A DNA stretch of 56,925 bases, counting the filler, from Sluysia triapertura (taxonomy: Eukaryota): NCBI GenBank assembly GCA_046118255.1. It is 4 parts of 4 records of this genome, joined end to end, with 100 filler letters (N's around TTAATTAATTAA, not from the genome) between each part and the next. Parts side by side here need not be neighbours in the genome. Positions count along the whole stretch, not along the records: positions 1 to 15,018 come from JBJNIA010241215.1; positions 15,119 to 30,387 come from JBJNIA010232899.1; positions 30,488 to 45,074 come from JBJNIA010254523.1; positions 45,175 to 56,925 come from JBJNIA010173476.1. One strand, written 5' to 3'. Made by a program: the position numbers and the translations under genes. A model generated the notes under the pieces. The model saw only the letters and a list, made by a program, of their open reading frames with translations, had not been told where the DNA came from and ran no database searches. Below, in pieces: positions 8,077-50,614 of the stretch (positions are counted from its first letter, which is position 1; the number at the start of each line of letters is the position of its first letter).

Positions 8077-8229
8077 GGTGAAATTTTATCAAATTATCAA
8101 AGAACATAAGTTGAACATGTTTGTAGAAGATTAAAATTAACATCACTAGTTTATTTATGGCAAAGAGATCAGAATGAGTTATTAGATACAATGGTTAAAT
8201 GTGACATAAATGCAATAATGCTTAAAATA
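8077..8229 (+). pseudogene. DPH6: Diphthine--ammonia ligase fragment
   Basis: Translates to GEILSNYQRT*VEHVCRRLKLTSLVYLWQRDQNELLDTMVKCDINAIMLK, matching the conserved DPH6 block GAILSxYQRxRVExVCxRLxLxxLxYLWQRxQxxLL. One in-frame stop; no flanking DPH6 exons recognised. Confidence 0.9.
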
Positions 8230-9594
8230 TTAAACAATTATCTAAAAGTATGGATTAAATCCTTATAGTGAAAGAGGTTGAATAAATGGATTAATCATTT
8301 GCAATTATGCAATACTGTTGTGGATGACACAGAACCTTTGGCCAAAGTAAGAAAGAGATCCTTCAAAATATCTTACAACGATCCAATGAAAGAAGCACAA
8401 CTTATAATTGACCAATCAAGATTTTATCAGAAGTATTATTCAATATATATATCGAAAGAATTTTATGAAATAATTTGCGGCTTCTTATTCGACAACCACA
8501 AATTCAAATTCAATCATTTAGAGTTTGAACTCCAAAAATTTAAAATTTTTATCCAAGAAGTCGATTAGAAACGTTTATCATGCAAACAAAATCCGTCTCC
8601 ACATTTTCGACCATCAAAATAACATTTGAATTGGAAGAAACGATTATGAAGTATAAAGTAACAAAAACTGGTTCATCAATTCATCGAAATGTTTGGAATA
8701 AATATGATTTATCACACACGGAATATGTCGGTTATTCACAATCAGTAAAATCAGAATTATCATTAGACTACAGTCACACGTCTCAGAGTATCAGAAAGAA
8801 AATTCATTGTCAAACACTGAATATACGCGTTGAAAAAAATTAATCGAATAAGAAGTAAAATCTGTATTAATGTAACATGATGTATTGAAAGAACTTGTAT
8901 ATATTTTGAAGTATTTTAATCCGGATTTGGATAGTGCCAAATGTGAAATGGGAAGACAATTAGATGAATGAGAAAATTTCAGTAATAATACATTCTCCAA
9001 AATCACTATAGAAACATTACTACTAACAAACAACACTCTTCCATTTGTACTAAACAGATATCAGTCTGATTTATTCGATCAAGAAACAAATGGTCTTACA
9101 AAAGGTGAATTAATTGCAATTATACTAGCAATCATTTTAGCTATCACAGATGTAGGAATAGTATTCTAGTTAATACTTCGTAATTATGGTATATATAGAA
9201 CAATCACTAATATCCAGTATATGCAGCATTCTACTGCTAACTTAGGAAACAAATCTCAAAGTGCATGCAGTGATAAAACATGCCCATCTGAAGTAATACT
9301 ATGAAGACTGGTGTATATTTATTTAGTTTATAGTCATTCAAATTATAATTTGTTGAAATATTATATCTATTTAAGAAGTTCTTCAATAAATTCAATTTAA
9401 ATTCTTTAAGGTTCGTTAATAGCGATTGATTATAATTATATTTTTTTAAATTTATTATAACTAATTTCGAATTCTCAATAACAAATAATAAATAAAAAAT
9501 ATAATAACATTTAACTTTTTTAATTTTAACATTATAAAAATGGGAATTTTTTAAGATATTGTTCAAATTTCTTAGGCTATGACACGAAAGGAGT

Positions 9595-10052
9595 TTAAAG
9601 ATTGTTCTAAAAGAAATCAGACATAAACAATAATTAATAATTACTTTTGGCTCCTCGTATGATTCGGAGGCGAGTGGCACACTGTTACCAATATCGTCAC
9701 TGACTTCAACGTCTGCAATAGATAACTGCTGCAAATTGAAATTGATTCCAAGATTTGACAGAAGTGAATTTATTCTGTCATAATGAATACTGAAATCTGC
9801 TGGATAGCGAAGAACATTTTTGAACTCATAGAATCTGTGGGAATATCGACAATTCTTCCCATAGCTGGAACATTCCCCAGTTTGTGTAGTTTCATACAAA
9901 CAAAGGGCCATCTTGTAGCAATTGTATTCATTAACATAATTCAATGAATTTATCTGCAAAGGTTTGCTGCCACTATAGAAGAATTTAAAACGAACAGCTT
10001 TTGATTTATCATTTGACAAGTTTGTCTTTAATAATGTTACTTTATTTGTCAT
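9595..10052 (-). CDS. Small single-CCCH zinc-finger protein (139 aa if spliced: exons 10052-9645 and 9606-9595)
   Basis: YKMALCLYETTQTGECSSYGKNCRYSH is C-x9-C-x6-C-x3-H with a TIS11/ZFP36-like YKxxLC leader. A phase-0 38-nt GT-AG intron (9644-9607) is followed by NNL-stop. ATG start, no disablements. Confidence 0.7.
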
Positions 10053-10792
10053 GACAAATGAATCGACATCTCTTTAATAACTAATTTGTGAAACACAAGA
10101 AATATATTAACAAAAGTTTCTATAAATGTTAGGTTTAATCTACCAATACGTTTATCTTCTTTTATCATTTTATAGTCCAATGAATTGACTTAAATAAACT
10201 TGAAAATATGACTTTTTCATAATTTTTACAAATTATAATAATTTCTTTCGACACAGATAGATAAAAATAAACTGTTATTTTGTACTTGCACTAATTTAAC
10301 ATAAATTTCATTAGTTTGATAATTCAAAAACTTTAAAATTTTCGGTTATACTATCTAAAAATAAAGTACTATCTAAAACTAAATTTTTGTTTGTAGTTAA
10401 CTTTAGATCAACAAATTTTATCTTTACAGCATTTCAATACATCACTTCCATCTTTAAATATATTATCTTTTATTTGCTTGACGTTAACAGAATAAATAAC
10501 ATGATCATTTTCATAATCTTTTTCACTAAAGTCGATTATAATATTTCTATCAACATATTTGGATGACACATACGGTTTGTTTTATTCATATACATCGTTG
10601 GAATGCAATGACTATAATATCTAAAACAAACTGATTCATTTAATGTAAGCATCAACAAAATTGTTTCATAAAATTTTTAATTTTTTACTACTAATTAAAT
10701 AAGTCACTGTTATGATTTTTAAAAACACTTTTCAAATTACTATTTTTCTTACAAAAATTTTATGATTATTTTTAATTTTGTGCTGTATGTTG

Positions 10793-10841
10793 ATTGGACA
10801 TCCAATCGAATACATAAAGTAGACCTGAATGGATGTCCAAT
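10793..10841. repeat. Short inverted repeat (MITE remnant or hairpin)
   Basis: ATTGGACATCCA (10793-10804) and TGGATGTCCAAT (10830-10841) are exact reverse complements. Confidence 0.55.
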
Positions 10842-11012
10842 ACAATAATTTGAATTAGTGTCTATCATAGGTAGGTAGTAGAGGTGGAATGCAGAATTAG
10901 TTTTAATTAATCTGTCTACCCATGGCAGACAATGAATTAAGTTTAATTTCCAAGTTAATAAGATAATGACAATAAAATGATGATAATGAATACAACAACA
11001 GTAACAATAATA

Positions 11013-12828: not shown

Positions 12829-12900
12829 CAGTGGTGTCAAACCTTTTTGCTTTACGGGCCGCATGATTTGCCTCCGCGGGTCGCCACTTTGACACCACTG
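12829..12900. mobile_element. 72-bp hAT (Charlie-like) MITE
   Basis: TIRs CAGTGGTGTCAAA ... TTTGACACCACTG, with a perfect 8-bp TSD CTCTAGAT at 12821-12828 and 12901-12908. Confidence 0.95.
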
Positions 12901-13487: not shown

Positions 13488-13776
13488 ATGGATATTAAAG
13501 TTAATTCTGATTTTGCTTATGTGATGTACGTTGTTATTGCAAGTTTTTTTACTAAACTTATTTAATGATGAAAGTCGGAATTGTTAGAAAGAAATACTCT
13601 GAAGACAAACAAGGATTTAATCGTATTCAGAGATGCCATCAGAATTATTTAGAATTATTACCATTTTTTATGTGTTTCTTTTACTTGGTTCATTTTATTG
13701 CTGTAAAGTAGCTGTAGGTTTTGGTGTGGTTTATTGAGTAGGTCGATTGATCTATAAAGTTGGTTATTCTTCTGGA
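13488..13776 (+). pseudogene. MGST3: Microsomal glutathione S-transferase 3 (MAPEG family) pseudogene
   Basis: MDIKVNSDFAYVMYVVIAS / KVGIVRKKYSEDKQGFNRIQRCHQNYLELLPFF / LLLGSFYCCKVAVGFGVVY*VGRLIYKVGYSSG matches the MAPEG motifs FNCIQRAHQNxLE and GRxLYxxGY. Frameshifts, a stop and an internal deletion; no intron seen. Confidence 0.88.
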
Positions 13777-15018
13777 AGGATACATGAAGAAGTATGTAGT
13801 GATACATTTGAATACCATTTCCATTATTTCCACATGATGTTAAAGCTTATAATGATCGCATATGGAATCAAATGTGTTATGTACCGCATCGAAAGTCGAA
13901 TAAAATAATTTATGAAATGGGTTTTAACATAGATATAGAAGATGAAATGAAAGAATGTCCATATTTGACATGTCGTTCGACCAACAATACTACATTAGCT
14001 AATTTAGTCTTGAGTGATTTCAATTCCATATCCAATCTTGTGAAATCAACATCAAGCAAATCGTTTTTAAAAGAAACTCTAACGAATGTCATCAGTTATA
14101 TGCGTGATATTATATATTTTTTGTTTTCGAATATAAAATTAAGTTTTGTTGGTTTGGTTTTAAAATTTTTTTAAGGCTATTTTATTAACTTGTTCATCAG
14201 TTGTTGAAAAGTTTAATATTTTGTTAATTAGTATTTAATTAATTAATATTTTGTTAATTGAAAGCCTAAATATAATTATGTTTCATAGTTTTATTATAAA
14301 ATTCAACATTTTTAATGATAAAAATAAAAAGCCCTACGAAGAGAGTATAACACATTAATCATATTACGCGTAGGTTGTCGTTATTATTATTCTTATTAAA
14401 TATTACTAGTAAAGTGTGGAGGGCGTTACAATTTTGCTAATTTTTTTAACTTTAATTTTTATGTTATTTTTACTTATAAAAATATTTAACTTTAAGACAA
14501 ATCTAATTACAATGAAATAATTAAATAATTCTAACTTAAAATTTAACAAAAAGGGCTTAAGGCCCAAAACAATTATAAACAAATAAATAAACAAAACAAG
14601 TAAGGAGTCCACGAGATTTATTAACGACAAATTTACGTATAATTCTAATAAATATAAAATTTTCAATGTTAACAGGATGAACAAAAAAATATTAACGTCT
14701 TTAACATTTAACATATTACAGAAAGTACTATTGATGAGCAGAAATATAAATTTTATTATAGTATATCTTATTAGACAGAAGTAAGTAATAGATTTCCAAA
14801 TTTCTATAGCAATTATCATAGATACTGTAATTATTAAAAATAAAAATAAGCTCAATTTTAGATTCGTTTTCATATTAAATAATAGAGACGCTAAGTATAA
14901 TAAAATTGTCGTTACTATAGTAACTATACTTTCAAACATAAATATTTTCTTGGTGAAATAAATATTTGTTTCTTGTATATGATCGAAAGTACGAGTTTGA
15001 TAATGCCATTCTATTTCT

Positions 15019-15118
15019 NNNNNNNNNNNNNNNNNNNNNNNNNNNNNNNNNNNNNNNNNNNNTTAATTAATTAANNNNNNNNNNNNNNNNNNNNNNNNNN
15101 NNNNNNNNNNNNNNNNNN
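15019..15118. other. Assembly gap with artificial TTAATTAATTAA linker
   Basis: N-run with a central six-frame-stop linker; the same structure occurs at 30388 and 45075. Confidence 0.95.
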
Positions 15119-16656: not shown

Positions 16657-17885
16657 CATTTTTAATTTTTAAAAAATTTTATCTGCTCACTAAACCAATA
16701 ATTACCACTATCAATGTTGACATTTTGGTCACTATGTACAAATTCTCATCAACATTGATAGTGGCTTTAACTGTCAATCAAATTGTTTTTGGCGATTATT
16801 ACTGGTTGTCCAACCCAAGTGATTCTGCTTATTATTTTTATATCTCTGGTTGGACAACCAATCCAGACAAAGTAAAAAAAATACTATTCACTGTAAAATT
16901 TGTTATTAGTGTTAGCAAAAACTTTTATGTGAAAATAAAATAAGAAAAGAATTTGCAAAAAAATTATTGCTAAAAAAATTTTCAAGATAAAATTAAAGAA
17001 ATGACTGCAAATTTTCAATGTGAACTTATTAGTGAAGATATATTAATTTTAAATGATAATGAGATAAATACATTTGAAATATAGCTATTAAATTCAATTT
17101 CCGAATACGATCGTGTCATTAATCATAAAGCTGTTGATAGAAATAATTTAAAGTATATATTTCCTTTACAAACAATTAAATAAGGTTATCATCATGTCAG
17201 TACTAAACATAACAGTAGTTTTACTTGCATTAAACGACAGACTAATGTAATTGTAAAAAAATGAAACAGAATGTAAAACTAAAGACTTCAGATATGTTAT
17301 TGAGACACAGAACAATGCGATCGAAACCTACAGAATTAATGAATTTAAATACAATATCGAAGAAATAATTGACTGTTTCAAAACAGCATTTAAACCCCAT
17401 GAATATAAAATGGGAACAATTTGTGGGGTTGCTTACGCAAAACAAACATAGATTAGGTTTCAGTGGAAAAATAAACTGAATGGATTTGGTGAAGATAAAT
17501 CTTTCAGATTTGGAGTTGAAACTAATGATTATCATTCCCATGGCACTAACGTTACATTTTACGATAAATCATTATTCTCTTGCAAATTCAGATATGAGGT
17601 TTTAGCACAGTCAAATTTGTTTTTTATGATGATAGATGTTTTGGTAAACTACAATTGAATGTTGTAACAGATTCGTTAAATTTAGTTTACTTGTATTTGA
17701 GTAAGAGCTCCACTTACTCTTTCAAAGATCTTAATATTGATAATGAGTCTAAGAATGTGGAATCTATTATAATTAGTGATGATGCGTATAGTTTATCCTA
17801 AAGTACACATATTCAACCTCTAATTCTTGTCAACACTGTGGCAGATGTAAATAAGCCTATAATCGATACAAAACATTGCCAATCA

Positions 17886-18303
17886 ATGTCACATAATTAT
17901 GATATATCAAATAGTAAAGTGGATAACAAGAATCTTTCTCAAAGTTCTCACTACAAACCAAACGAAGATAATGCGAAACCAGCAAGTAATTATCCTAGTC
18001 TAATGCACCTTTATCATAATACAATCAAACGTATACCAATTTCTAATCGGCGTATTGGAATAGCATTGTGTCCTTATGGAAGCGATTTCAATGGTAATTG
18101 TGCAAAATCTGGAAGAAAGTGTCTACATGCTCACACTATTGGTCAAATGACGGATCTATATTTACATCAAGATAACTTGGACCATCTTTCCAGACTCACA
18201 AGTTTAATGCGATCGGTCAGCATTCCTGTTCAGTCGAATAATACCAACCTTAGTGACTTTACAAACCTTAATTTTATTTATTTTTATTGTAGTGATAACT
18301 TAA
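17886..18303 (+). CDS. Small single-CCCH zinc-finger protein, paralog (candidate intron 18253-18292)
   Basis: IALCPYGSDFNGNCAKSGRKCLHAH is C-x9-C-x6-C-x3-H. The downstream HLSRLTSLMRSVSI resembles HYDRINSLLSNLGI of the 9.6-10 kb copy. A 40-nt GT-AG candidate intron is followed by a micro-exon and stop. The start codon is uncertain (first ATG at 17886). Confidence 0.62.
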
Positions 18304-19477
18304 CTATTGATTTTACTTTAGGTAGGGAAGTAAGGACATCATAAAATAAAGAAGACGTTAGATATATTTGGAATAATGATAAATTATAAAATTTTATGTT
18401 AAATAAACTTTTAGTGTGTTTAATTTTCACATTTTTAATCTGAAAGTTTAGAATCAAAATTTGAATTTTAATGTTAAAGTAACTATTTTTAAAACCACAA
18501 ATAAAAGATTTATTGTAAATTGTGTATTAAATAAGATAATTTTACATATTACAAACGCCTTTCAACTACTACAGTTCCGTTGTGTGTTCATAAATGTATT
18601 TACAATTAAAATCAATTCAATAATTTGTGTGCACTTACAACAGTGTGTATTTACAACAGTGTATTTACAAAGATGCATAAGACTGAACATAAATTTTAGC
18701 AAATTTTGGAAAATTCCTTATTCCTGACGATATAGCGAACAGTACTTGTAGTTATTCTGAATAGAAGCTTTGTGCACTTTGTTTACCTTTTTCAACTTAA
18801 AGTACGCTTCTTTGAAATAAGTGTCAAAAATATTTATTGATAAAAAATAATCGATAGAAATATTTCTTATTGTTTTATTAAATTTTCAAAAACTCTAATT
18901 TCTTCTAATATTCTCGAAATGATATTGCTCGTATTAATTATAAATCAATACCAATACAAGAACTACACAAAGGCAATTGGATTAAGAAATAACAATTAAT
19001 TAGTAAATTATCCAATGAATGTCAAAAGGTATTTCAAATGAGCTTTTGAGACAAATTATTTTTCACTAAGTTATGTCATAAGTAATTCAACAAGAAATGT
19101 GTATTGTTATTTTAAAGAAAATTATAAAAATAATTTATCACGGCAATATTTAATATATCGTATTTTCAATGTTTGTGTTATAGCAAATAAATTTTTGTAC
19201 TACGTATGGTGACCAGACTTAATGCACAAAATTTTTACACTTCACAACTACATAACAACCAAACAACTTAAAATATTAAATTTTAACAACTTAAAATCGT
19301 TTTAGTTAAAATTCAAAAATCAGTTTAAAAAAGAATTTTCTATAAAAAAAATAAGTTCAACAATCTTTCTTACTCACTCTCACTTCTTCTTAACCTCCTA
19401 TCTATTTACCTTCTAACTTATATTTTTTAACTCCTGCTCCAATTCTCTTCCTACCACAAATTCAATAAACGAAATGC

Positions 19478-19735
19478 TCTACTCATAATATTGTAAGGCA
19501 GTTTCGAATCCAAACAAAAGATTACCAAATTATACAGACAAAATTGTTGAAGTCTCTAAAAGCAAAAAACTACATGAAATGCCGCATCACATATATTCCG
19601 TCCCCGATGATGCTTATAGGATTATGCTACAAGAACAAGAAAATCGATCTATCTTAGGCATTTGTGAATCAGTTGCCAGTAAAACTAAAGATGCTAAAAA
19701 GTTATTTAGTACCTTTCCTCAGTAGCTACATCAAT
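19478..19735 (+). pseudogene. Myosin II heavy chain motor-domain fragment
   Basis: NPNKRLPNYTDKIVEVSKSKKLHEMPHHIYSVPDDAYRIMLQEQENRSILGICESVASKTKDAKK matches NPYKxLPIY...GKKRHEMPPHIY...AYRxMLQDRExQSILxTGESGAGKTENTKK. The P-loop is destroyed and a frameshift follows. Confidence 0.92.
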
Positions 19736-21000: not shown

Positions 21001-21739
21001 TATTAATTTTTTAATAAAACTTTAGTGGTTGTCAAGGTTGGCCACTACACTTAGTAACTTATATCCTGTTAAAGAGTTAGTCTTAAGAAGTTTATTTACT
21101 GACTTATTATTGGACATTATAGTAAAAGCGTCTCGAGATTTGTTTGTATCACATTCGTCATGAAGTTTCGGTAAAATTTGGTACAATTGTTCAACAACAT
21201 ATTTACCTCTATTATCCACTAAGACAATGTTATCAACATAGGTATATTAGCATAATGAAGACACTGAGAAAAGTTGCAAAGTGTACATGGCTTTCCTATT
21301 AGTAAGGGTTTGAGATAGATACAATGAATTAATAGTGAACGTCTAAGAATTTTCATCATATGATTCATTCTTAAGCAATAATGCTTGTTCGAGACCATAT
21401 CGTAATGCTTTTCTAGTGTTTCTCATATCTTCTTCGATTTCAGCTAAACATGTGGGACTCGTGATTCGGATAAACAGTAGCAAAATTAAGAAAAGTAATC
21501 TTAAAACAGACAGTAATTTTATCCAGAATATTGTATTTCTACTATGCGTTGAAATCAGCATTATATTGGCTGATCTGATTCAATTCAGGAAGAAACTGAT
21601 GTTACATCTCAATTATCTATATTATCGGATGAAGATTCGGATGTCTGGAACAACTTTTTTTGTAAACCAGAGCGTTTCCAAGTACTTTGTAGATTTTCAT
21701 GCATTAAAGTAACATAATCAGGAATTTCTAAGTACTGTG

Positions 21740-29188: not shown

Positions 29189-29189
29189 A

Positions 29190-35723: not shown

Positions 35724-36024
35724 TTCAAGACTCTTTTATTCACAAATCCAACGACTGGCCCTAACAGGTAATCCCAGTACGTTGGTGAACTCACGTAAAA
35801 CCGTCTCTTTATTCTATTAATATACTTTAAATATTTTCCACAGTTTATATATTTTTATTATTTTAATTGAATACAAATGTGAATAAGTTTAAAATCTGTA
35901 ATAGTGAATATATCAATTGTTAATTTATTGTTTAGTTTATCTTTTAATTGTACCTTTAAATATAAATGTTAAATTTGAATTTATTGAGTTGTCAGGAATC
36001 GGTAATCTAACAATAAAATAATAT

Positions 36025-36206
36025 NNNNNNNNNNNNNNNNNNNNNNNNNNNNNNNNNNNNNNNNNNNNNNNNNNNNNNNNNNNNNNNNNNNNNNNNNNNN
36101 NNNNNNNNNNNNNNNNNNNNNNNNNNNNNNNNNNNNNNNNNNNNNNNNNNNNNNNNNNNNNNNNNNNNNNNNNNNNNNNNNNNNNNNNNNNNNNNNNNNN
36201 NNNNNN
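36025..36206. other. Assembly gap
   Basis: N-run. Confidence 0.95.
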
Positions 36207-36302
36207 GTTAAAAATCTTCGGAAAATTAATATTTTAAATTAATTAATTTATTATTATGGTTCCTTATTTTATTTGAATATGTGATGAAAATAATAATTTC
36301 AG

Positions 36303-37455
36303 ATGATTATCAACGAAACCTTATCAGAAAATTGCGTATGGCACCGATCTCGACAATCAAACGGTTATATGAAATTAATACAACTTAGCACGTTGTTGGT
36401 TCCAACATTTAACCTATCATATTTATCAACCAATTCAATTTATTCCAATTATATTACCAAATCCAATTGGGCATTCATATTATCACCTCAGAAGTTATCT
36501 CGAGATATCAACAACGAGTCGAGATCGAATTTAAAATTGAATATTAATAATTTTTTAAATAGTAGTACAAATTTGAAATTAGTTTTCAGACTTTATGATA
36601 AATGGCGACAGTCTGTTATACCCAAAATATGTTACGATATCGATCAAAATATTCGTAAATTGCAACAATTTAAACAAAACATCTTCAATCGGATTGGTCG
36701 AATTTGTCGTAAAATTTTAACCAATCAAAATTACTCTATTTCAACAAATGATATTAATAAAAATAATCAGAAAATGAATCTAATTCATCTTTTCAATAGT
36801 TATTTTTATCATCAACAATTGGTAACACGCTATTGGTTAGTATATTTTGATTTAATCCAATTAAAAATGAGTACTCACAATTTTAATTTATATGAAAATA
36901 AAATATTATTTAAGTACATAAATACATTTCCCATTATAATTCAGGTTCCTATATAACATCTATTATTCGAATTTGCAGCTGGCAGTAAAGTATAACTACT
37001 TTCATCGTTCACATAAATTCCAATTAAAGATCGACAATATCAATAAATCGTACAAAGAAATAATTCTTAAATTCCATCGACTTCGTCATCGTATATGTCA
37101 GTTATTAACACCGGAATCTGTCGAAGTTTGTTTCTGTTTCGGTAATATACAATTCAGTCAAATTAATTGTGCTAATTTTAATTCAACAATTACTAAATTA
37201 AGCAATCAGCAATCAAAATCGATTTATTTCGGATTTAAAAATTTTGATTGGTTCATATCAAACAGTGTTCCTGATTGGTTCAAAATGCCAACTAATACAG
37301 AAATCAGTCGTGCCGTGGAAATTAATCGATTGTATGATGCTAATAAAAAATCGATTATTCAATTGCGTCAAGTGTATATTACGAAAGAATTAATGAATGG
37401 AAATCGCATCCACAACATGGCTAGTGATGCTTGTAAAGCCAGTGTTTGCTTGTAA
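36303..37455 (+). CDS. Uncharacterised host protein, last two exons (36303-36944, 36979-37455); further 5' exons may lie in or before the gap
   Basis: Two long open frames joined in frame by a phase-0 34-nt GT-AG intron (36945-36978). A TTTCAG acceptor immediately precedes 36303. No disablements; family not recognised. Confidence 0.75.
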
Positions 37456-38112
37456 ACTTGAGGAGTTATATCTAGTTATTAAAATCATTTTTCAAATATC
37501 ACAGTTACTAAGCGACATAATTATATTTTTAGAAATTATTTCGAAATGTAAAATTAAAAATTAATCGAAATTATTAATAATATTCCAAACTGCGTTTTCG
37601 CATTTATAAAATGTGACTTTGTCAAGTAAAACATCGCAAATTGATTCTAATTGTTTGCGAATTAGAACGATATATGACTCGTTTATTAAGAAGAATTAAA
37701 ATATGCTTTGTATTCTCTACACAGAATTGAATGGCTGCCTTTTCTGTCTTCGTTTCTGTAAATAATTCGTCTTTCATCCGATTGTGTTCGTATATAACAT
37801 ATTTATAATTATATAATTATATAATTTATAATTTTATTTTTGATTATTTTTGATATGTGACATCAAATATTTAATATTATTTTATATACACACAAGAATT
37901 TACAATAATTTATTTTGCTTAGTAATAATAATAATAATTAATTATAAATTACAGATTCTCTCTTGAACAACTCACTTTTTGATTGTACACAATTTCAATG
38001 TTTTCTTTTTCTCATTTTTTATTTATTGTTTTTGATGTTATTCCAAATTTTGCACTCATTCTTTACAACAATCATTCATTTCTCACTTGTTTTTGTGATG
38101 TTGTGTCTTGTG

Positions 38113-38171
<59 letters not shown>

Positions 38172-38187
38172 CATTATTATTATTATT
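38113..38187. repeat. (ATT)n microsatellite
   Basis: Near-pure ATT run. Confidence 0.95.
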
Positions 38188-40380
38188 AAAATGAACCATT
38201 CATTATTTGCATCTTTATTTTCCATTGCAAACTGTCTTAATAACGAAACATGCCCCGTCGTTAAAACTGAATCAATTATCAAAATATTAACTTCTAAAAA
38301 TATTCATTAAAATTCTGTTTGAAATAAAAGAAAGTAAATTTTGTTTGGATCGCTTTGAGAAATAAATCCAGTATATGTATACATGTATTCATTTTGCGTG
38401 TGGAGGGCAATTTGTTTTGTTTAAATAATACTTGACAAAAATAAAATGCAACTGCTTCTCGAATTCGAATTCATCGTACTTTCTTATTCAATAATTTTAT
38501 TATATAATCGAGATGTTGGAATTTTAACTAAAACATATTTTCTGAAAACATATATTAAGAATTAAGATATATAAAAATATTGTTTGAAATTTTTATATTA
38601 TAATTTTCTTATTAAAATAACTTCATAATAATTATAATAATAATTTGGATTTGAGACACTCGAAAATTATATGGAATAATCGATTATTAATCGTGATATA
38701 ATAGACTAAACATTTGGTGTAATTTTTGAAAGAAGATCTAAAATGCTTTTAATGTGGTGTTGTGCAAGTTCGATGGTTATTTGAAAATGAGAGTAATAAT
38801 AATTTTTACAAGTTAACAATTCGAAATAAGTTTTCGAATACAATTCATAACTTTTCCGTGAGGTAACTGTGGTGTCCCAGACATTTGTAATACTTATATT
38901 ATCACGCACATTCATAAACTTACACAAAACTCATCCAAAAATACATCTTATATCTCATCATCTCATGACATTTAAAACAACATAACTTATACATTCAATT
39001 TAAATTACAAATATTATAATTTATTATTACTGAAATTATGAAATATATTTTATATTGCATGTAATTCTCAATAACGCCCTTATCGAGTGGTTTACCCTTC
39101 TTACATTCTTATCTAAACGTTTTTTCTATTTAAGTTTTATTTTGTTGCTTCATAAGGTCTAATAGTCTACATAATAAATCTAGCATGAATAACCAATAGA
39201 AATCTTATTGTTCAATTCAAAGTTGTCTGTTCTATCGTAAGCCTAAGACAGAGCAGCCTTCAGAAAGTCTCTATAAACATAAATCTGACGAAAGAGTTCT
39301 TAAAACAGAAATAAGCGAAGTTGAAAAAGGTCTGAAAGAAACATCAAATACTCAGACAGCCTAGGATCGGATTCATCAAATTAATACAGTAAATAAACAG
39401 TCAACAGTTGCATCAGTTTTACTGTGCTAAATCAATATTTATGTGGTTACTTTTACATTATTATATGCATATTGTTTGTATTTAAAATTTTCATTCTTGT
39501 GTTTTTTTGTAACATAATGCTTTGCAAAGTTCTTAATTCTGCAGGTACAATAAAGTAAACGCTCTGTTATTACCATATTTCTACTGCGTTTGATTCCGCG
39601 AATTTGGGTTTGAAAAATATTCGAGTTGTACCTGCAATATGTTAATTAAATTTTGTTTAATGTAAATTGATGCTTGTATTAAGTTCCATTTTCAATGATG
39701 TGCTATTTTTTTGTGCAAAAATCACGAATTTAAAAAACGATTGGCTATGTGTTCCCGAAGAGAATCTCCAAGATATTTTATAGCTAAAAAGTCAGACCCA
39801 AACTATGCGAGTACTCATTGGTAGAGAAGTGCTCTTTGGTTTAAGAGCGTTCCTTCGTCGGTGGATGTTGAAACTATTCTTGTTATCGGTGAAGATATTG
39901 AATTATCTCAAGAGAAATTGGAATAATTTAAAGATTAAGATGATTTAGAGGGTTGCGAGGGCAGCTAGCAAGATTATCATCACAAATTAGTATCAACAAA
40001 ATTTGATGAAAAGCTTATTCTTATTAAATTATATAGACGTACTTCTGAAACCTGTTATTTATCATTTATTATTTGTGTTTAATTGAATTTATATTTATTG
40101 TTTTATTTTCTTTTTGAATTAATTAGACAATTAAATTGTTGTTTTTGACAGATCCTAAATAATAGAATTAAAAATTGCCTTGAAATGTATTATTAATAAT
40201 TTAGATTATAGAACAATTGATAATAAATCAAATTTTATAGAACTAAGGAAAGTTAGAATAAAAAGGAATTAAGAACGAAATTCATGAGCATTGTTCACAA
40301 TATTGAACAATCACTACATGATAATTATCGTATTTATTATATCACAATATTAATTTTAATTAGAAATAATTAATAATAAT

Positions 40381-40384
<4 letters not shown>

Positions 40385-40430
<46 letters not shown>
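40385..40430. repeat. (AAT)n microsatellite
   Basis: Pure AAT run. Confidence 0.95.
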
Positions 40431-40433
<3 letters not shown>

Positions 40434-42061
40434 TTGTTAATATTTATCACTTTAAAATATTAAAGTATGATGAATATTTTGCAGATGATTGATTTGGCGA
40501 GTGTTTATTTTCTGAATATCAAATCAGAATTGTAGAACATTTTGTTGAATGAGAATATCCCATTTGATGAAACGATAACAATGATTATTTAGAAAATATG
40601 GAAAACAATTTGTTTTAAAATATAAATAAACAATGAAAATAATAAACAATGGGTTTAATCGTTTAGTTTTCACCATAATGTAAGATTGAAGTATAAATAG
40701 ACTCTTATTTCAACAAAATTCAATTCGACGTTGTACTAATTGAAATTAAATGAAACAATATCAATAACGATTAGTGCAAATGTTTCAAAGATCAAAATAA
40801 TTAAATTTAGTTTTATATTTATTTAATTAATTAAATATTAATTGTATTGTTAAAAAGTGTAAATATCAATTAAATAATATATCAAATATTCGAAAATTTA
40901 TTAATAAAGGATCAGCTAAACTTATTGTTCATTCATTGATTTTAACAATGGCTTATTGTACTCAATTTCATATAGAAAAGTGAAAAATTACACTTAGTAA
41001 TTAATCAAGCAGCAAAACTAATTCTCCTCCAAGTTGGAAGAACATCTCATGTAACACCTTATATCATAAGGAATTTCATTGGTTGCCAATAAAAGCAAGA
41101 ATAGAATTCAAAATCATGACAATAATTTACAAATGCGCTTACATTACGGAAGTTCTGGATATCTTTTAGAAATAATAAAAAATCCTTGGAAATGAAGATG
41201 AATATTTCATTGAGACATAATAATTGTGGTGGCCAACTCAATATTTTAATAATGTACAATAAAATAACTTTTCAGAACATTTCACAATTCTTAATACTTT
41301 CTAACATATACTTAAAAATTAATTCAAAACATTGCAAATTTAATTCAACATATTGCTCATGAAACCACATTCCATAACGCTTTACCTATTATACTATTAA
41401 AACCTTTTATATTTTACTTCTTTTAGATCCGTTAAAATCATTTTCATATCTCCAAACATTTTAAATCGCCAGCGATATTAATAAGACAAATGATGTTTCA
41501 ACGAATTATTAAACCCAAAATTCAGAAACTTAGTTTATCTAAAAAAAATTTATCTGTTTGATAAAATATATGTTTACTATTCATTTAGTAATAATTGTAC
41601 TATGGAGAAAATTTTGAAAGATGAATTCAACGAAGTTAGGAAAGTAATATTTATTAAAAGAAATTGTTATCCTGCTTTGTTAAAAGATATAACGAAATTG
41701 ATGCAAACGAAATTTAATATCAATGATGAGCATTTTAAAACTTGCCTATTCAAAATTATAACATATAATTTAATGAGTATTCATTTGACTTGTGTGGATT
41801 ATAATCTTGTCCGTTATTTAATATCATCATTGGACATAAGACATCGTCAGTGTTCAGAAAGCAAATTAAAAACATTATCTATTAATAAATTAATACTTTG
41901 TCATGTTAATACTTGTGGATTAGCATATAAGTGAGATGTTCAAAACATTAGTAGAAGAAATTCGATGACAGTATTTTTTCCAACTAAATTTAAACTATTT
42001 AGTTCAATTCCTGTTCGTACCTTGAAGTATAGAATGACTAAAGAAAATAAAATTATAGATA

Positions 42062-42183
42062 CACCTATCCCCCGATTTATACGGTAGATACGTTCCTGAG
42101 AAAAACGTAAAAAAACTTATTTGGAAAAACGATAAAAACAAAAAAAACTTATTTGGAAAACCGTGTAAATCGGGGGATAGGTG
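42062..42183. mobile_element. 122-bp Tc1/mariner-superfamily MITE
   Basis: TIRs CACCTATCCCCCGATTTATACGG ... CCGTGTAAATCGGGGGATAGGTG, flanked by TA on both sides. The internal motif AAAAAAACTTATTTGGAAAA occurs twice. Confidence 0.92.
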
Positions 42184-42256
42184 TATTTCTATCGATATAA
42201 TTTTAACATTTCGTAAATTAGCTATTGCAAATATAGTAGATATCCATTCATTAGTT

Positions 42257-42610
42257 ATGACCAACGAAATGAAATCATTAGAGACATTGCCAAACGATCA
42301 TTCAAAAGTTGACTGATTTAAGTCGTTGAACAATATTAACAAAATTCTACAAGTTGCTCTCTATCCCTATATGCCCACTCCGATCGGTATATGTTACAAA
42401 TACGGCAAAAACTGCGTTTACGGCCAAAATATTTTAGAATTCCGTGATGTTCATATTATCATATTTATGAACATCAACTTTAGGAGTCGAAACTTGCTTG
42501 CAGAATCTAGTTTTCAATGACGAAAACAATGAAATGGTAATACTTGTATATTTTTACATGAATTTTAATAATCTAAATCATTTTTATTTCTTATATTTTT
42601 GTAGAATTAG
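42257..42610 (+). pseudogene. Decayed paralog of the single-CCCH gene
   Basis: MTNEMKSLETLPNDHSKVD*FKSLNNIN...ALYPYMPTPIGICYKYGKNCVYGQNILEF aligns with MTNKVTLLKTNLSNDKSKAVRFK...ALCLYETTQTGECSSYGKNCRYSHRFYEF. GT-AG intron at 42537-42604, then N-stop. Similarity continues to ~42840. Confidence 0.75.
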
Positions 42611-42898
42611 TCATGAACATCCTGAGTGGCATAATCGGAAAATAATGAAACAATTAATAAATATAAATTTGTTGAAATTACATTTTGTAGAAATAAATAA
42701 AGTTAGCTCTTACTTTTTATCAATAATTTTTGAAAGAAATAATTTAAACTTTTTTGTAAAATTCTTAAATAAATATAAATTTAACACTATCTTTCAAGTA
42801 TTTCCCATATTTTTATTTAAAATTAAATTAATTCTCTCGTAAATAGATTATAAAATACATATTGTAATATTTAATAAAGAATTAATCACAGCAACATT

Positions 42899-43075
42899 AC
42901 AATAATAATCTGTACAGAATCCACATTGATAGTAAGAGCTAGATGATAGGTTATATACAGTTTATGTTTCAAAAATATACAACCAGGTATGTCAAATTAC
43001 TGGAAGATTATGAAAAATTTAAGAAAAAGGCAAAGTTGTTTCTGTTTCAGAAATATGGTGAATGATTTATTTTAA
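42899..43075 (+). mobile_element. 3' end remnant of a CR1/L2-group LINE
   Basis: SKIYN..VKLLEDYEKFKKKAKLFLFQKYG; homologous to 20299-20455. Confidence 0.5.
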
Positions 43076-43352
43076 ACGCTTTTGAGTACTTACTTTGTAG
43101 TAGATATGAGGGCAATATAAATTAATATATTATTATGGTTATTATCTTTCCAGCATAAATAATGTTATATTTTATTGTATCCATGTTCCATCAAGTTGAA
43201 ATAAATTTAAAATAAATCCAACTCCAAGTTATCAATCTTGACAGTGTAATTAATCTGGTAATCAGAATTAATTCCCCATCACATATTTATCAAACTCATA
43301 CCTTACAAATTGACACCAAAATATTATCGGCCAATGTAAACATGATATTTTC

Positions 43353-43432
43353 TGACTGATCAATGCACAGACCATATAATTGCACAGTTGTGAGGTAAAA
43401 GGTTCTGGGTTCGAATCCCGGTCAGTCCATTT
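43353..43432 (+). repeat. tRNA-like repeat (SINE head or tRNA pseudogene)
   Basis: B-box GGTTCGAATCCC in a T-arm, then TCAGTCCA-TTT. The 5' half is degenerate. Same 3' end as the copies at 50150 and 52152. Confidence 0.6.
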
Positions 43433-44092
43433 AATGAGGTTTAATAATATCATATGTAATTAATGATCTTTTCATCATTCTAAATATGAATAATTCAACA
43501 TTCCACAATTAAGAATTTATTAAATTTGCCTTTCCTTGCATGAACTCGGTCAAACCGTACCTTCATTGAAAGGTCTTCTTATAATAAATACATAAACAGA
43601 TTCAAATTTAACATAGTAGGACGGACAGTTTTTGATTTTCACGGACAGATTTACGAATTTACAATCAACCACTGGACTTGGATGATATTTGAGAAGAAAG
43701 TTAGTAGCTATATACATGTTTCAAGCATTGTGGAAAGATGTTATTTATCATCAAGTTGAAAATATTCTAAACTGCGGACATGATATACTGAAGATTGAAG
43801 AGCTTGTTCAAAATATAGTCATGCCTTGTTATCAAGATTAGGAGGTTCTACAGTGTGACCAAATTATCAGACCATTTTTCAAGGATACTATGAAACTATT
43901 AATCAAAAGTGCGTATAAAAACATTGTCACAGAAAATGTAAAATGTTGGAAAATAACTACTTTCTCCAAAAAATTATGGTGAAAGTAAAACAATAGATAA
44001 AAATACTGAGATCCAAAACATACAGAAATTTTATTCATGTAGAATGTGATAACACAATTTACCGCAAGTCAAATATGTACAAACAGTTGTAT

Positions 44093-44330
44093 CAGTACTT
44101 TGTTTGCCCTCCTTTGTTATCTAATAATTTCCTGATCCTTAAAGGCATGCGACAAATCTTTGATCTCTTCATCGTGATGCCATACTTTTATCAGGGTTTC
44201 AATGAAGTTGGTTTGTGGGTAGAGTTTCCAGGCCAGAGTAGCAAATATTAAGAAAAGCAAAGAAAAACATATTTTTCCTGTTTTAGTCTAATAATTTGGC
44301 CACCACCTTCACCGTCTGATTCCTTTTTCT
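44093..44330 (-). mobile_element. Tc1-like transposase C-terminal remnant
   Basis: Minus strand gives WPGNS, LIKVW and MPLRIRKLLDNKGGQTKY*, typical of the Tc1 motifs WPxNSPDLNPIE and SMPxRxxxVxxxKGGxTKY. Confidence 0.75.
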
Positions 44331-45005
44331 ACTTCTTTATATTAACAAATGTATCTATTTGTCATTTTTTCTTGACATTTAATATTTTAATATTAGTAAA
44401 TTTGTATACTGTGCAGTTTTAATAAGACTGCATCTTTCACAGTCGCTTATATATTAAGGATGAGAAGGGAGTTGTCTTAAATATGCATGTTCCATGATCT
44501 TGATGATTATCTGTCATTATTTGCAGTTCTTAAATAGTGGATTAGTTATTTAATTTAGAGTACGTGCACTGCACAAAGCATAGAACCTTCTTAGGAATAA
44601 CCATGGTAACCATGTAATATTACACAGAACATTCTTCTATTAATTATGTAAGTATGGTTGGTTGTCATATTAAGTGATAGCAGATCGTAAGAGATGTTCT
44701 AATGATTCGTGACACGTTTCGCATTAATTGACCATTAAAACCCTCGTAGGTACCTAAGTTTCATACATACGCAAATACAAATAATCATCTTTTGAATGAA
44801 CAGTGAAAAATTCATTTTCCAATTAATTAACACCAAATCCCAATTTAATACAATATTCACTTTAGCCAATAAAATCACTCTAACATTCGTCAAACTAATT
44901 CGATATAGATGATAAAAACGTATTTTAAGTGAGATATATTTGAAGGAGATGGAAATAAATAACAAATGAATTATAATTGGAGTTGATTTTAAATTAAAAA
45001 ATAAA

Positions 45006-45007
<2 letters not shown>

Positions 45008-45074
<67 letters not shown>

Positions 45075-45174
45075 NNNNNNNNNNNNNNNNNNNNNNNNNN
45101 NNNNNNNNNNNNNNNNNNTTAATTAATTAANNNNNNNNNNNNNNNNNNNNNNNNNNNNNNNNNNNNNNNNNNNN
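45008..45174. repeat. (AAT)n microsatellite running into an assembly gap (45075-45174)
   Basis: AAT run followed by an N-run with linker. Confidence 0.95.
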
Positions 45175-45908
45175 AAGAAATTTTTCTTATAAATTCTAAA
45201 TTTGATACATCAGAATTATAGGATCCTTTGTTGAAAATAATGTACTTTAAAGAGACAAATCTCAAACTTCGGAACGAACTATGGTGGTAAAATCCATTAG
45301 TTCTTATTATATTACAAAGTCAGTTGACAATAATATAACTTTCCCTCGTAATACAATTAACAATTCATTATCTTGCTATAGTTAACATTTTAAAACTTTC
45401 GAATTCGATTTTCAACAGTATATAGTGATAATGAAATTCGCATATATAAACCTGTATATATCTGTAATACACATTTTATGGATATTAAAAGGATTGAAGC
45501 ATGCTACATCTGGTCCAATAAAAAAAGCCAATAAATGAAATACAACTGCCGAAAGCCATTGTATTACAGAAACTATTTACTTATCACAATTTGATTATAT
45601 TAACAAAGCATTTCTTCGAATTGGATATGCAATCAAAATCATCGAACATTATTTCGAACATTATAACTTATTTTCTAATATTGTATATATTGTATCTGCT
45701 AGTCAAAAACTTACAAATGATTTAATAATGATTTAATTATTTTTGCAATCGACAACATGAATAAGAAAATTTACATCGCTTATCTGAAAATAGAAAGTTA
45801 TCCAGCTTGTAGCAAATTATCATTGCGAAGGTTTTTTCATTACTACTTTTCAAAAGATTAACTAGATTACATTTTATGATGAAAAAATATGATTGATATT
45901 ACTAAAAA

Positions 45909-46089
45909 AGAAGAAACAGTAGTAAATTATTAGGAACAACAGTTGAGATAGCTAATAAAGTTGGTGCTGTTGTTGATCATTTAAAAGATGATTCTGAACC
46001 ATACCGTAAAATGGTTATTGAAATGATAGGAAAAATTACAGAAACTTAAGTTGTTGAAACTATTGATATCAGATTAGAAATTAGATTAA
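45909..46089 (+). pseudogene. SF3B1: Splicing factor 3B subunit 1 HEAT-repeat fragment
   Basis: [56 protein letters not shown] matches [20 protein letters not shown]..IVDDLKDExExYRKMVMETIEK, with a short in-frame deletion and a stop. Confidence 0.9.
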
Positions 46090-48019
46090 AATTAGATTGG
46101 AGAATTTTCAAATGTTAACTGTGAAGAAAATTAAGAATTTTGTTAATTTTATTGTGAAGAAAAGTTGGATCACTACAATTTTAGAAGTTTTGTATCATTT
46201 AAAACGTTTTCAAAAATTATTTATTCATTATAATACTTTAAAAAGAGCTGTTTTATCAAGAAAACCAATTTAGGACAATATAAAATTCAAATTGCATTCA
46301 ATGACATTCTTCTATTAATCAACCCAACAAAAAAAGTATTATTAAATTTTGAAAAACGAATTTATGATTGGTGATCTATTATAATCATTTTTATTGGATG
46401 TTTCAGTTGCGTTTAAAACATTGATAATTTCATTTTCCATTAGTTTATGAAAATTAAATCAAGAGACCAATTCGAAATTTCGATACTTTCTTTATCAAAA
46501 TGATTATGAGATAGATTATGATATTATTTAAAAAATTATTTCAGAAACATGTTCAATTAATTATATAGTGGTATTATATAGTGGTATTTGGCTATATTTT
46601 AAAATTAAATAAACGCTTAATATTTTAAATAAAGTTAATACATCTCTTTCACAAGAAAAGCACGAATAATATCTTCTTTGAAATTATTAGAAGTTCAGAA
46701 CACTATAGTTAATATCAGATGAAAATGGTATATTAACAAATCGAAATTCAAGAATTTTTTGGTTAATACATTTTTGAAGAAAAATAAATATAAAATCGTT
46801 TCCGAATGTAATAATGATTCAACAGAAGCAAATTTGAATGTTAAATAATACATTTCCGGAAATTAATTTTGTTCTTCATAAATGTTAGATTAACCATATC
46901 TATCGTTTTTATAAAATTGAAGTTGATGTTGATTTTTTGTTTTTTATTGGTTGAACTGCAATAAAATTTTGCAAAATGTTTCACAAGGCCGACTTTGCAT
47001 TCAAAATTTGTGTTAAAATAATAAATTTTCAGCAAAACAACAATGAGGATAACATATGCAACTTAATGTATAATACATACAGGATTAGAAAAGATAATAG
47101 ATTTTGTGATATTATTGGGATGAGTGAGAAACACATAAGAACTATAAAATGAAGGAAAAACTGATACAAAATGATAGATTGAACATTATTAACATTGTTG
47201 AAATAAGAATCATTAAAATGAAAACATCTACAGTAATATTAACAACTAAAGAATATATTCGAGTTCCAAAGATCTGTATAAGATGTTGAGACCTTGTGGA
47301 AGTTTGAGATGTACTTTGAAAACATTTAAAGGCAATAGGGTATCTTTGAACTTCTGAACCTTGAGATCATTTTAGACCTTACTGACCTTTATGTAATGTT
47401 GAAACATTGATAAGCATTTAAGATCTTTTAATAACCTTATAAATTAGTTTAAATCTTTAAAATACTAAAGAAATAAAATTACTGTTACTAATATTAAAGA
47501 TAAATTTGATATAATAATAATTAACATAAATAAATAGAGAAGGAATCAGGGAGGTGAAGGTGAAAACATCTAGAGCCTCCTGAATTCCTTATAAAGTACT
47601 GACAAACTTTAGGACCTTAATAAAACATTTAAACATAATATAAGTTTAAGTCTAAAAATAGATTAATTAATTAAAAGTTTAATTAACTTAATTAAGAAAA
47701 AATGCGTTTTTGTGAATAACGTTTGAGTGCGGAATGCTATATTAAATTTGAAACTGCGTATATATTTCGATGAAAGTATGGTTTGATCGAGTTCATGCTA
47801 GGAAAGCCTTAATATTGAGCAATGTCAAATTTTAATTAATTCATAATTGTGGAATGTTAATTTTTAATACTTAAAATGAGGAAATTGTAATGAATTGAAT
47901 ATGAGATTACTGATATGAAAGAGGGAAATGTAGAAGTGAATTTGAAATGTCTGTAGAGTGGTTTGTTTGAGAATAAGAATCTTAAACATTTTCTTTATTA
48001 ATGCTTATTAATGCTTTTT

Positions 48020-48354
48020 GATATTATCGCAAACAGTATTATAGCCAACACATTGATATCTGGGCTTAATGTGTTACATTGTATGCCAGCGCAACAAGCA
48101 AAGGCAAGACTGTAAGCATAATATGTATTTCATACTTACCATTCCCACTAAGACCTCGCTTAAGACATGTTGATAGTAGATAGTGGGTTAGTGGGACCAC
48201 TCCTGCAATACATATTTGCACTCAAACACGAAAATATTAAATAATAAATGTTACATAAAAAGGGCCAATTAAAAATTGAACAAATCTGCTCTAACAAAAT
48301 AAATTGTCGAGTTCGTTTCTCGATCAGTTCACTTTTGGGATTGTTTGTTTCCAT
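48020..48354 (-). pseudogene. Unidentified gene fragment retaining a 30-nt intron
   Basis: Consensus G|GTAAGT...TTACAG intron at 48139-48110 lies between coding-like segments, the upstream one containing stops. Confidence 0.4.
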
Positions 48355-48384
48355 CCTTTTGTTATTAAATTAAATTTGTTAGGT

Positions 48385-49380
48385 TGTTATCACAACCTTT
48401 AAAATTATATGATTTCTACAAAAGAAAATAATTTTATATAAAAGAAAATTAATTCCTAAAAAATGAAAATAGTTTGCGAAAAAAGAAAATAGTATTTTCT
48501 TAAAACTTTTTAGAATATTCTAGAAAATTATAGAATTCTAACCGATTATGATTGGCTGCTAATCACAAACGACAATTTAATTATACAATTCAGTGATATA
48601 ATTTTATCGATTTATTTATAATTTTGAAATTTATTCAATTTAGTAAAACAATAAAATTGGTACGTTTTATTTATTATAAGATCGATTGCACCCTTTGAAT
48701 GTAAATCTTAAAATTCGGGTCAAATTTTTAATGATAGGAATTATTTATATTTAAACTTCCAAGTACAAAGAAATTAAAGACCTTCAAATGATTTAATGTT
48801 AAGATATTACCTTTTATTTTATTATTTGCTTATGTTCTCATTCCATCTTATCTATATATTTGTTTGTTTATATATTCCTTTTTATTGTATTAATCTTGAT
48901 TGACATTAGGTTTGTGAATTAATCAAACTAAATTAATTAAACTAAATTAAATTAATTTAAATTAAATTAAGATTTAGTTTAAAATAGAAAGGTTTAATCG
49001 TATTATTGCACAAATTGGATGATAATAATAAGGTCAAATAATTCAAAAAAGATCTAAATCTCTAATAATTTGCCATAAATTATTAAAGCAATTTGTGTAG
49101 AATTAAAATTAGACCGTCAATCTGAGATCAAGTAGATTAGAGACAGGTACGTCCCCTCTACACCATAAGTTATGTGCTATAATTGGACCTTGCTAAAAGG
49201 TTAAGGATAAGAAAAATCACAACATGTATAATTCATGAATATACTTTAGAAATTAATATTTAACTTCAATTAAAATCATAATTAGTTAAATAAGAAAAAT
49301 TAACCTAAGAAATTTTTTTTAATCTATAATAAATCCTTTCGAAATTGAAACAAAAAATTACGGAGCTGTTTTATAGTACA
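48385..49380 (+). mobile_element. Possible solo LTR related to the 29190-29917 LTR
   Basis: Starts TGTTATCACAACCTTTAAAA (compare TGTCATCACAAACCTATTAAAA) and carries AGAATATTCTAGAA at a similar distance. The 3' end is uncertain and no TSD was found. Confidence 0.45.
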
Positions 49381-50149
49381 ATATATAATTATAACCAGTT
49401 GACAATATTCTGTTTATATATAATTTAATTGTCATATATATAATTTTTATTTTATAGTTGGTTTATTCATATTTTTAATGAATATGTTACAATATTATTT
49501 TCAATTATTTATTTATTAATGTAAGTATTTACAATTATTAAAAAATGTTATACCAACATTGTATTTGTTGGTACAATTTCTGTATTATTATTTTGCATAT
49601 ATTATCAATGTTTTTCTGTCAATAATATTATATTTTTATATTTTAATTATAGATTAAATCTACAATTTTGTAAATAATCGAAAATCAATTATTTCAGTAT
49701 TAAAATTGTTAAAAACTATAAGAATTGTAAGAACTTATGATATTTGACAGTCTAATATAAAATGATCATGAAACTATGTATCAAACATTGACTACTTATA
49801 ATGACCTTGGCTTAATCCATCATTATCACTACTAACTACCTGACGCCATTTACATTAATGATATAAAACATTGTCTTTAAAGTTGTTTGTCAATTGTATT
49901 AGACTTTCTTCTGTTCTAAAACGGTTTGGAGAATAATATATAAACTTATATAAGAACAGACCATACAAAATGAATTATATCTAAATATATTTGTATTTTC
50001 GAATTGTACTTAAAATTTATAAAAGTTTTCCAATTTTCTTTCAGAAAAGTGTTATCCTTTTTATTATTTTTATATTTTTATATTATTAAATGCGATTTTG
50101 TTCGAAACTCTCACATACAATACAATTTCTCAAACTACCATTCAATAAA

Positions 50150-50614
50150 TGGACTCATCGGGAATCGAACCCGGGACCTCAAAGTTCGATGATTCCATTT
50201 TGTCATTTTGATATTTATAATGAAGTTTAGCAACATCACATTGTTCAATAAATTTCCATCCATTCTTCGGTATGTGGTACAACACCACCTGATGCAGCAC
50301 CTCGATAAGTTGCATTTCTTTATCATTCACATCGAATGATGTGATAAGTGTCTGGAACTCCATAAGCAGACAATGCTTAGATAACATTATTTCCCCGAAT
50401 AAACAATCTGCTGCACCTCCTGCCATTGTTCCTAATAAATATTTCGATAACTTTCTTCAGTTTTTGCGATGCAATATAAAGTTGTTGTTCCTTGAGCAAT
50501 TTTTAATTGAATAAATATCGTGAACAATAAGTCTTCTTTGGGTAACCAAAACTTTGATTTTTGTTATCCTTAATATGCATTGGAAGGCTGTCTGACCACT
50601 GAGCTATCAGCCCC
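50150..50614 (-). repeat. tRNA-like repeat split by a ~400-bp insert
   Basis: 5' half GGGCTGATAGCTCAGTGGTCAGA (A-box) at ~50614-50592 and 3' half AGGTCCCGGGTTCGATTCCCGATGAGTCCATTT (B-box) at ~50180-50148. Confidence 0.7.
50200..50510 (-). pseudogene. PSMB5: Proteasome subunit beta type-5 pseudogene, internally deleted
   Basis: KIAQGTTTL|YIASQKLKKVIE / YLLGTMAGGAADC ... ATYRGAASGG / LYHIPKNGW...DVAKLHYKY are the beta5 motifs from the N- to the C-terminus of the mature chain, with large internal deletions and frameshifts. Confidence 0.92.

Follow-up and report, generated by a model that had tools for sequence, protein, structure and literature searches.

Five disabled housekeeping-gene fragments in a repeat-rich window of Sluysia triapertura DNA, including a PSMB5 fragment within an abundant tRNA-like repeat

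Disabled fragments of five housekeeping genes, DPH6, MGST3, myosin II, SF3B1, and PSMB5, lie in a 56,925-nucleotide (nt) stretch of Sluysia triapertura DNA (assembly GCA_046118255.1), here called the window and meaning the whole stretch at its full length. The window comprises four pieces separated by three artificial spacers. The fragments are read, at a probability of about 0.5, as independent old pseudogene debris on different pieces, likely mRNA-derived and eroded by deletions, and not as the haul of one capturing element. PSMB5 is the clear case, a gapped copy inside one copy of a very abundant repeat.

The five fragments were placed by profile and phmmer matches:
8071-8244, plus strand, piece 1: DPH6 (diphthamide synthase) pseudogene piece (Pfam PF01902 positions 90-147, E 1.2e-9)
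13488-13781, plus strand, piece 1: MGST3-like (MAPEG) pseudogene piece (PF01124 in two frames, E 2.8e-6 and 0.014)
19480-19707, plus strand, piece 2: myosin II motor-domain piece (phmmer match to smooth/non-muscle myosin II residues 115-190, E 2.3e-18)
45906-46088, plus strand, piece 4: SF3B1 piece (phmmer E 1.7e-9, residues 826-892 of a 1304-amino-acid chain)
50196-50503, minus strand, piece 4: PSMB5 piece (E 5.1e-10)

An initial annotation of this DNA had named the same five genes as present and disabled, and the matches and translations bear it out. Each fragment carries a stop codon and/or frameshifts. DPH6 has one in-frame stop, and a homologue search with its open reading frame (ORF) returned no candidate. 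The MGST3-like piece begins at a likely start ATG and carries frameshifts and a stop; within the MAPEG family it is presumably MGST3, and it matched no solved structure. The myosin II piece aligns over 76 codons without a gap to smooth-muscle myosin II (PF00063 E 1.1e-16) and contains a stop and a decayed P-loop. SF3B1 has a stop and an internal gap of six codons. Best matches of the fragments are animal-type proteins. A changed genetic code was considered and rejected, as the stops fall at differing kinds of residue and frameshifts are common.

Poly(A) tails and target-site duplications (TSDs) are absent from all five fragments, as first described. The longest A-run in the 60 nt downstream is at most 6, and direct repeats in the flanks are only 6-8 nt long, a chance level equalled by 35-92% of random pairs. 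A 72-nt empty hAT-type miniature element at 12829-12900 has terminal inverted repeats (TIRs) and retains a perfect 8-nt TSD, so TSDs can survive in this DNA; it is the sole TIR-like pair with a TSD in the window. The absence of visible introns likewise holds in the sequence and says little without the parent genes. Pfam was screened with 229 ORFs of at least 42 amino acids lying outside a gypsy element (listed below) and passing complexity and GC filters (17 + 212). No sixth host-gene fragment was found among them, the set of 212 giving four weak matches below cut-off. The same screen misses SF3B1 and PSMB5, so five fragments is a lower bound.

Copy number was assessed in one sequencing run, X1, which contains 89% of sampled words of 45175-54000. 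X1 was the sole run listed as containing this DNA, and no RNA run was listed. Its contigs total 735.5 million letters, and the genome is therefore likely large. Depth was mapped at 80% likeness over 45175-50840, an interval that covers PSMB5 and SF3B1. X1 contigs are identical to the window (0 differences) at SF3B1 (45219-46256) and at PSMB5 (to 50237 and 50239-50586), so assembly error does not account for the lesions there. Since X1 may itself be the sample that was sequenced for the assembly, the confirmation is not independent.

The pieces are delimited as follows:
15019-15118, no strand: spacer 1, artificial, 44 N, a 12-mer with stops in all six frames, and 44 N
30388-30487, no strand: spacer 2, artificial, of the same 100-nt make-up as spacer 1
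45075-45174, no strand: spacer 3, artificial, of the same 100-nt make-up as spacer 1
36025-36206, no strand: plain gap of 182 N without the 12-mer, an ordinary scaffold gap within piece 3

All three spacers are identical (100 nt each), and their 12-mer core is palindromic. Pieces 1-4 are 15,018, 15,269, 14,587, and 11,751 nt long, have 23-27% GC content, and contain AAT microsatellites, as in AT-rich eukaryotic DNA. Piece 3 (30488-45074) is a gapped scaffold in its own right. In the passages cited here from two reports (PMC7907477, PMC3421443), scaffolds are concatenated into pseudomolecules by spacers that share this 12-mer core; the origin assigned to the present spacers is a likeness to those published ones, not an identification. 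The four pieces are reasonably likely to be separate short scaffolds packed together rather than true neighbours, and the joins are unsequenced whichever reading holds. The single 42-kb repeat tract of the initial annotation is not confirmed, as its span crosses all three spacers and piece 3 holds none of the five fragments. Fragments number 2, 1, 0, and 2 on pieces 1-4, an even spread such as the lengths predict (exact P 0.49). Dispersed families, the CCCH ORFs and the tRNA-like repeat described below, recur on different pieces.

The PSMB5 fragment lies within a repeat whose parts, with a second repeat nearby, are:
50150-50191, minus strand: 3' half of a tRNA-like repeat (resembling a short interspersed nuclear element), with B-box/T-arm (sequence; bin depth 35,195; sister copy near 43340-43410)
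50192-50590, minus strand: PSMB5-bearing insert of 399 nt (block mapping; same strand as the repeat)
50591-50700, minus strand: 5' half of the tRNA-like repeat (A-box/D-arm) and upstream part (bin depth 165,909; same flank at 30488)
47065-48009, no strand: extremely abundant dispersed repeat (summed depth up to 1.0 million, peaking at 47.6-47.8 kb, against 11-20 unique)

The tRNA-like head is divided between 50591-50612 (A-box half) and 50150-50191 (B-box half) on the minus strand. ARAGORN detected no tRNA and Rfam matched the T-arm alone at E 0.2, so the label "tRNA-like" rests on A- and B-boxes read by eye. In 7 of the 15 joint rows shown (458 further rows), each with 2-6 contigs, other repeat copies skip 410-421 nt where PSMB5 stands. 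A consensus built from the loose ends of other copies (279 and 158 records) traverses both halves with one base at the position of the insert. Repeat copies thus exist without the insert, and PSMB5 is therefore an insertion into one repeat copy that lacks a TSD and cost the repeat no more than one base. A contig spans one of the two junctions, with 46 letters on the PSMB5 side; the rows shown do not include the second.

Over the PSMB5 core the summed X1 depth is 32, and over SF3B1 it is 26-55, against 11-20 for exact unique contigs. The bins flanking PSMB5 reach 35,195 and 165,909. The contrast with these bins and with the peak at 47.6-47.8 kb is four orders of magnitude, so PSMB5 and SF3B1 are near single-copy and have not spread with a repeat. 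SF3B1 is carried on one unbranched 1038-nt contig (45219-46256; contig depth 16) with flanking depth of 26-79, in near-unique DNA and without a recognisable repeat fused to it. The proposal that the fragments are fused directly to repeats thus stands for PSMB5 and fails for SF3B1.

The insert comprises seven blocks in sense orientation to the repeat. They cover residues 70-278 of a 279-amino-acid coral protein, which takes them from the propeptide's end to the C-terminus. Gaps between blocks are 60, 6, 210, 0, 30, and 3 nt in the reference and at most 1 nt in the window, so that some 630 nt of coding sequence is cut to 310 nt without non-coding filler, ending at the coding end. Mapping to 59 of 74 homologues puts the five main blocks in gene order, and the weak fifth block is placed correctly in 2 of the 4 homologues shown. 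Blocks abut or overlap by 1-5 nt as mapped on homologues. The homologue search returned 77 relatives at 35-64% local identity, the parent not among them; 66-67 of 106 positions are identical to coral and mite PSMB5. A flatworm origin, suggested by a small number of common residues, was weighed and not adopted, since the coral and mite proteins do at least as well; the fluke's 50 identities are an undercount caused by misplacement of its last block. A 19-nt inverted match of 95% pairs 49201-49219 with 50555-50573, in the 5' part of the insert, 1.3 kb apart; such a match could arise by chance where DNA is AT-rich, or it could mark a patch templated nearby.

A diverged inverted copy of the 47065-48009 repeat lies at 43445-43571, behind a tRNA-like head at 43340-43410. 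Head and body may belong to a single, very abundant element whose upstream sequence is conserved over about 100 nt. Skips of 88-190 nt appear in 7 joint rows among copies of the 47-kb repeat; all are weak and marked "between: not known", and they hint at general deletion decay.

An RNA route, judged from the sequence, is probable for the fragments. Under the preferred reading of independent debris, housekeeping mRNAs were likely copied one by one by the genome's retroelement enzymes, and the copies were likely patched into breaks or repeats. They would then have been worn by point changes and internal deletions, and longer copies would have shrunk to 180-400 nt by later deletions, losing tails and TSDs with them. 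Retroelement remains are present in the window (gypsy-type and LINE-like ends, LINE denoting long interspersed nuclear element). Two routes are proposed for PSMB5. Its complementary DNA may have been copied in when the enzyme reverse-transcribing the repeat RNA switched template twice, a route proposed because the insert is in sense orientation, stops where the coding sequence ends, and has neither tail nor TSD. It may instead have served as filler at a double-strand break within the repeat, proposed because the repeat halves are intact and the insert is single-copy. Template switching, already invoked in the initial annotation, fits PSMB5 (sense, no TSD or poly(A), a single repeat copy), but break repair by gap filling fits too, and the two are not separable here.

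Known systems resemble the window in part. Processed pseudogenes and partial retrocopies, in the passages cited from PMC5470649, are likewise disabled, apparently intronless housekeeping copies in a retroelement-rich genome. The window differs from them in its lack of poly(A) and TSD, in internal deletions, and in belonging to an AT-rich, probably invertebrate genome. Template-switch retrocopies in long terminal repeat (LTR) retrotransposons (Tan et al. 2016, PMC5131818, in the passages cited) are also partial mRNA-like inserts in a repeat without tail or TSD, as is PSMB5. There the insert replaced part of an LTR element, whereas the PSMB5 host is tRNA-like and lost at most 1 nt, and nothing suggests that the PSMB5 insert spread afterwards. 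An LTR element flanking the insert on either side, with a part replaced, was not found at PSMB5, whose flanks are complementary halves of the tRNA-like repeat. Single-copy Pack-TIRs formed by gap filling (Tan et al. 2021, PMC8277862, in the passages cited) share a single-copy filler inside a repeat copy with little host sequence lost. The PSMB5 host, in contrast, is not a TIR element, and its filler looks spliced. A single-copy insert interrupting a continuous repeat, with empty copies elsewhere, was found for PSMB5 only.

The debris could also have been made at the DNA level, by short duplications or break gap-filling that copied exons or gene parts, with deletions removing the rest, introns included. 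Such an origin would suit the missing poly(A) and TSD, and the 180-235-nt pieces could be one exon each. At PSMB5, an otherwise continuous repeat is split by a near single-copy insert at a cost of no more than 1 nt, which resembles the gap-filling model in the passages cited from PMC8277862. But PSMB5 covers about 630 nt of coding sequence without non-coding filler and halts where that sequence ends, and the Pfam ORF screens, a search of low sensitivity, revealed no further part of any parent gene in the vicinity. In animal genes, introns usually fall within the myosin and MGST3 stretches. A DNA-level origin is held to be unlikely.

The initial annotation favoured an active local gene-capture process. 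This is not supported, given the artificial joins, the even spread, the absence of enclosing element ends, and the lack of multiplication of both measured fragments. A Helitron or a Pack-MULE/Pack-TIR-like element (MULE, Mutator-like element), perhaps the family behind the orphan CCCH and other ORF units, is very improbable as the carrier of the fragments as cargo. Gene capture by Helitrons and Pack-MULEs is documented in the passages cited from PMC6431247, fragment capture in animals is reported there and in PMC8277862, and several unrelated gene fragments near repeats are a shared feature. Orphan ORF units do surround DPH6 and MGST3. Unrelated units at 7879 (plus), 12022 (plus), and 14564 (minus) share a terminal 11-nt motif and similar AT-rich 3' tails. 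The window nevertheless differs from those systems, as far as the same passages describe them. It lacks element ends, its screened ORFs include no transposase, the fragments that were measured are not multiplied, and the five do not share one contiguous stretch. A scan for Helitron 3' ends (GC-rich hairpin, CTRR, T) found none on either strand, with a strict perfect-stem requirement that misses decayed ends. None of the six TIR-like pairs in the window encloses a fragment, and the other arms are AT-rich chance matches only. As the initial annotation stated, no RepHel or MULE transposase is visible, with no match among the 229 screened ORFs. Cargo multiplied with an element was not found for PSMB5 or SF3B1, the two of five fragments measured.

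The orphan CCCH zinc-finger ORFs lie on three different pieces (mutual E 8e-7 to 0.01):
9240-10073, minus strand: CCCH zinc-finger orphan ORF
17802-18341, plus strand: CCCH zinc-finger orphan ORF
42239-42517, plus strand: CCCH zinc-finger orphan ORF

DPH6 had been said to abut a CCCH unit. The nearest such ORF (9240-10073) lies some 1 kb off on the opposite strand, and the ORFs after DPH6 show no resemblance to the CCCH family. As for the 13.8-kb unit into which MGST3 was said to run, the ORF at 13812 has no DNA or protein relative in the window, and no repeat 13.8 kb long lies there. A homologue search with the CCCH ORF yielded no relative among 460 candidates. ESM look-alikes below 0.9 include giant-virus CCCH proteins, a lead only.

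Several results weigh against the reading of independent background debris. The chance of five fragments would be 0.006 at a background of one per 50 kb. Depth was summed over contigs, so it does not give a copy number, and it comes from a single run; copy number and flanks were measured for two of five fragments, PSMB5 and SF3B1. The missing poly(A) and TSD give a LINE route no support, and the large PSMB5 gaps could have removed the introns of a DNA copy. The spacers in the passages cited from PMC7907477 and PMC3421443 are longer than the 100 nt seen here. A perfect 17-nt inverted match (29996-30012 and 35778-35794), of which 0.04 are expected by chance, faces inward across spacer 2. It could be the two ends (a TIR pair) of one element, which would make the spacer-2 join real. 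Cross-piece DNA matches, few in number, lean toward adjacent pieces.

Likeness around the 17-nt match, however, extends to about 50 nt (29996-30045 and 35745-35794). One copy folds as a hairpin (z -2.6) and the other has z -0.8; no exact TSD was found beside the 17-nt pair. An element end and a small structured repeat are candidates for this pair.

If the joins were real, the region could be a true local sink, a heterochromatic graveyard or a trap like a PIWI-interacting RNA cluster, collecting repeats and gene copies above background. The high local density of one per 11 kb, the 17-nt match across spacer 2, and the plus-strand position of four of five fragments are in keeping with a sink. No sequence supports the joins, though, and each carries an artificial spacer; piece 3 is empty of fragments, and SF3B1 has near-unique flanks. 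A local sink is improbable on this evidence. An assembly effect, in which contigs were joined because each has a conserved-gene match and so gathered housekeeping scraps, is the faintest of prospects. Some finishing tools join contigs via regions conserved in related species, according to a passage in PMC11225021, and three of four pieces carry a conserved-gene scrap. That passage names no spacer, however, and nothing ties a tool of this kind to the present spacer; no reason is known why the five genes should neighbour one another in a reference, and piece 3 lacks a scrap.

Five fragments in 56.4 kb correspond to one per 11.3 kb (95% range 4.8-34.8 kb). At a background of one per 250 kb, the chance of five falls to 4e-6. 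This density is inflated by the choice of the window for its oddness, and it is the remaining oddity, high and unexplained. On balanced odds, the apparent concentration is the background level of debris in short repeat-rich scaffolds, picked out by a reader seeking oddities.

Other elements in the window include a retrotransposon on piece 2:
21343-27689, minus strand: decayed Ty3/gypsy-type LTR retrotransposon (Integrase_H2C2 E 2.3e-16, zf-CCHC E 1.5e-4, RVT_1 E 1e-4)

The gypsy remains lie 1.6 kb from the myosin II piece and do not enclose it; an element of this type is a possible kind of reverse-transcriptase source. Decayed mobile elements were observed at 1300-1500 (minus), 4550-5550 (minus), 40850-41170 (plus), and 54252-54760 (plus). 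They include what we take, by eye and from characteristic motifs, to be an R2-like LINE end and an L2/CR1-like LINE end, neither of which matched Pfam. Of two mariner remnants, one at 54.3 kb has a helix-turn-helix match (E 1.7e-4) and the other was recognised by eye. A 128-nt element at 42059-42186 has 27-nt TIRs that are 96% alike. Long open orphan ORFs (107-219 amino acids, and stop-broken chains) occur in AT-rich DNA at 17257-17800, 30744-31947, 36297-37455, and 41494-41934. Searches of Pfam, PHROGs, and the ESM Atlas with orphan ORFs gave no convincing match, only weak leads.

The PSMB5 insert provides a clean example of an mRNA-like copy within a tRNA-derived repeat. The window also serves as a warning that draft animal assemblies can yield windows made of separate pieces stitched together, and that clustering across N-flanked stop spacers is meaningless. 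It is doubtful that the pieces are a fair sample of a genome with tens of thousands of housekeeping-mRNA copies that lack tails and TSDs and are riddled with deletions, at about one per 5-35 kb, spliced by reverse transcriptase or break repair into the anticodon arm of the tRNA-like repeat and other sites. High retrocopy accumulation, at thousands of copies per genome, is known in therian mammals only, in the passages cited from a review (PMC5470649). If the pieces were an unbiased sample, this genome would exceed the therian retrocopy load, and one fragment per 11 kb genome-wide would be far above levels reported for invertebrates. No published report of such a fragment density in an invertebrate was found in the literature, a weak negative that does not cover supplements. 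Were the density true genome-wide, it would overturn the view of heavy retrocopy build-up as peculiarly therian, and it would offer thousands of natural junctions on which to weigh template switching against break repair.

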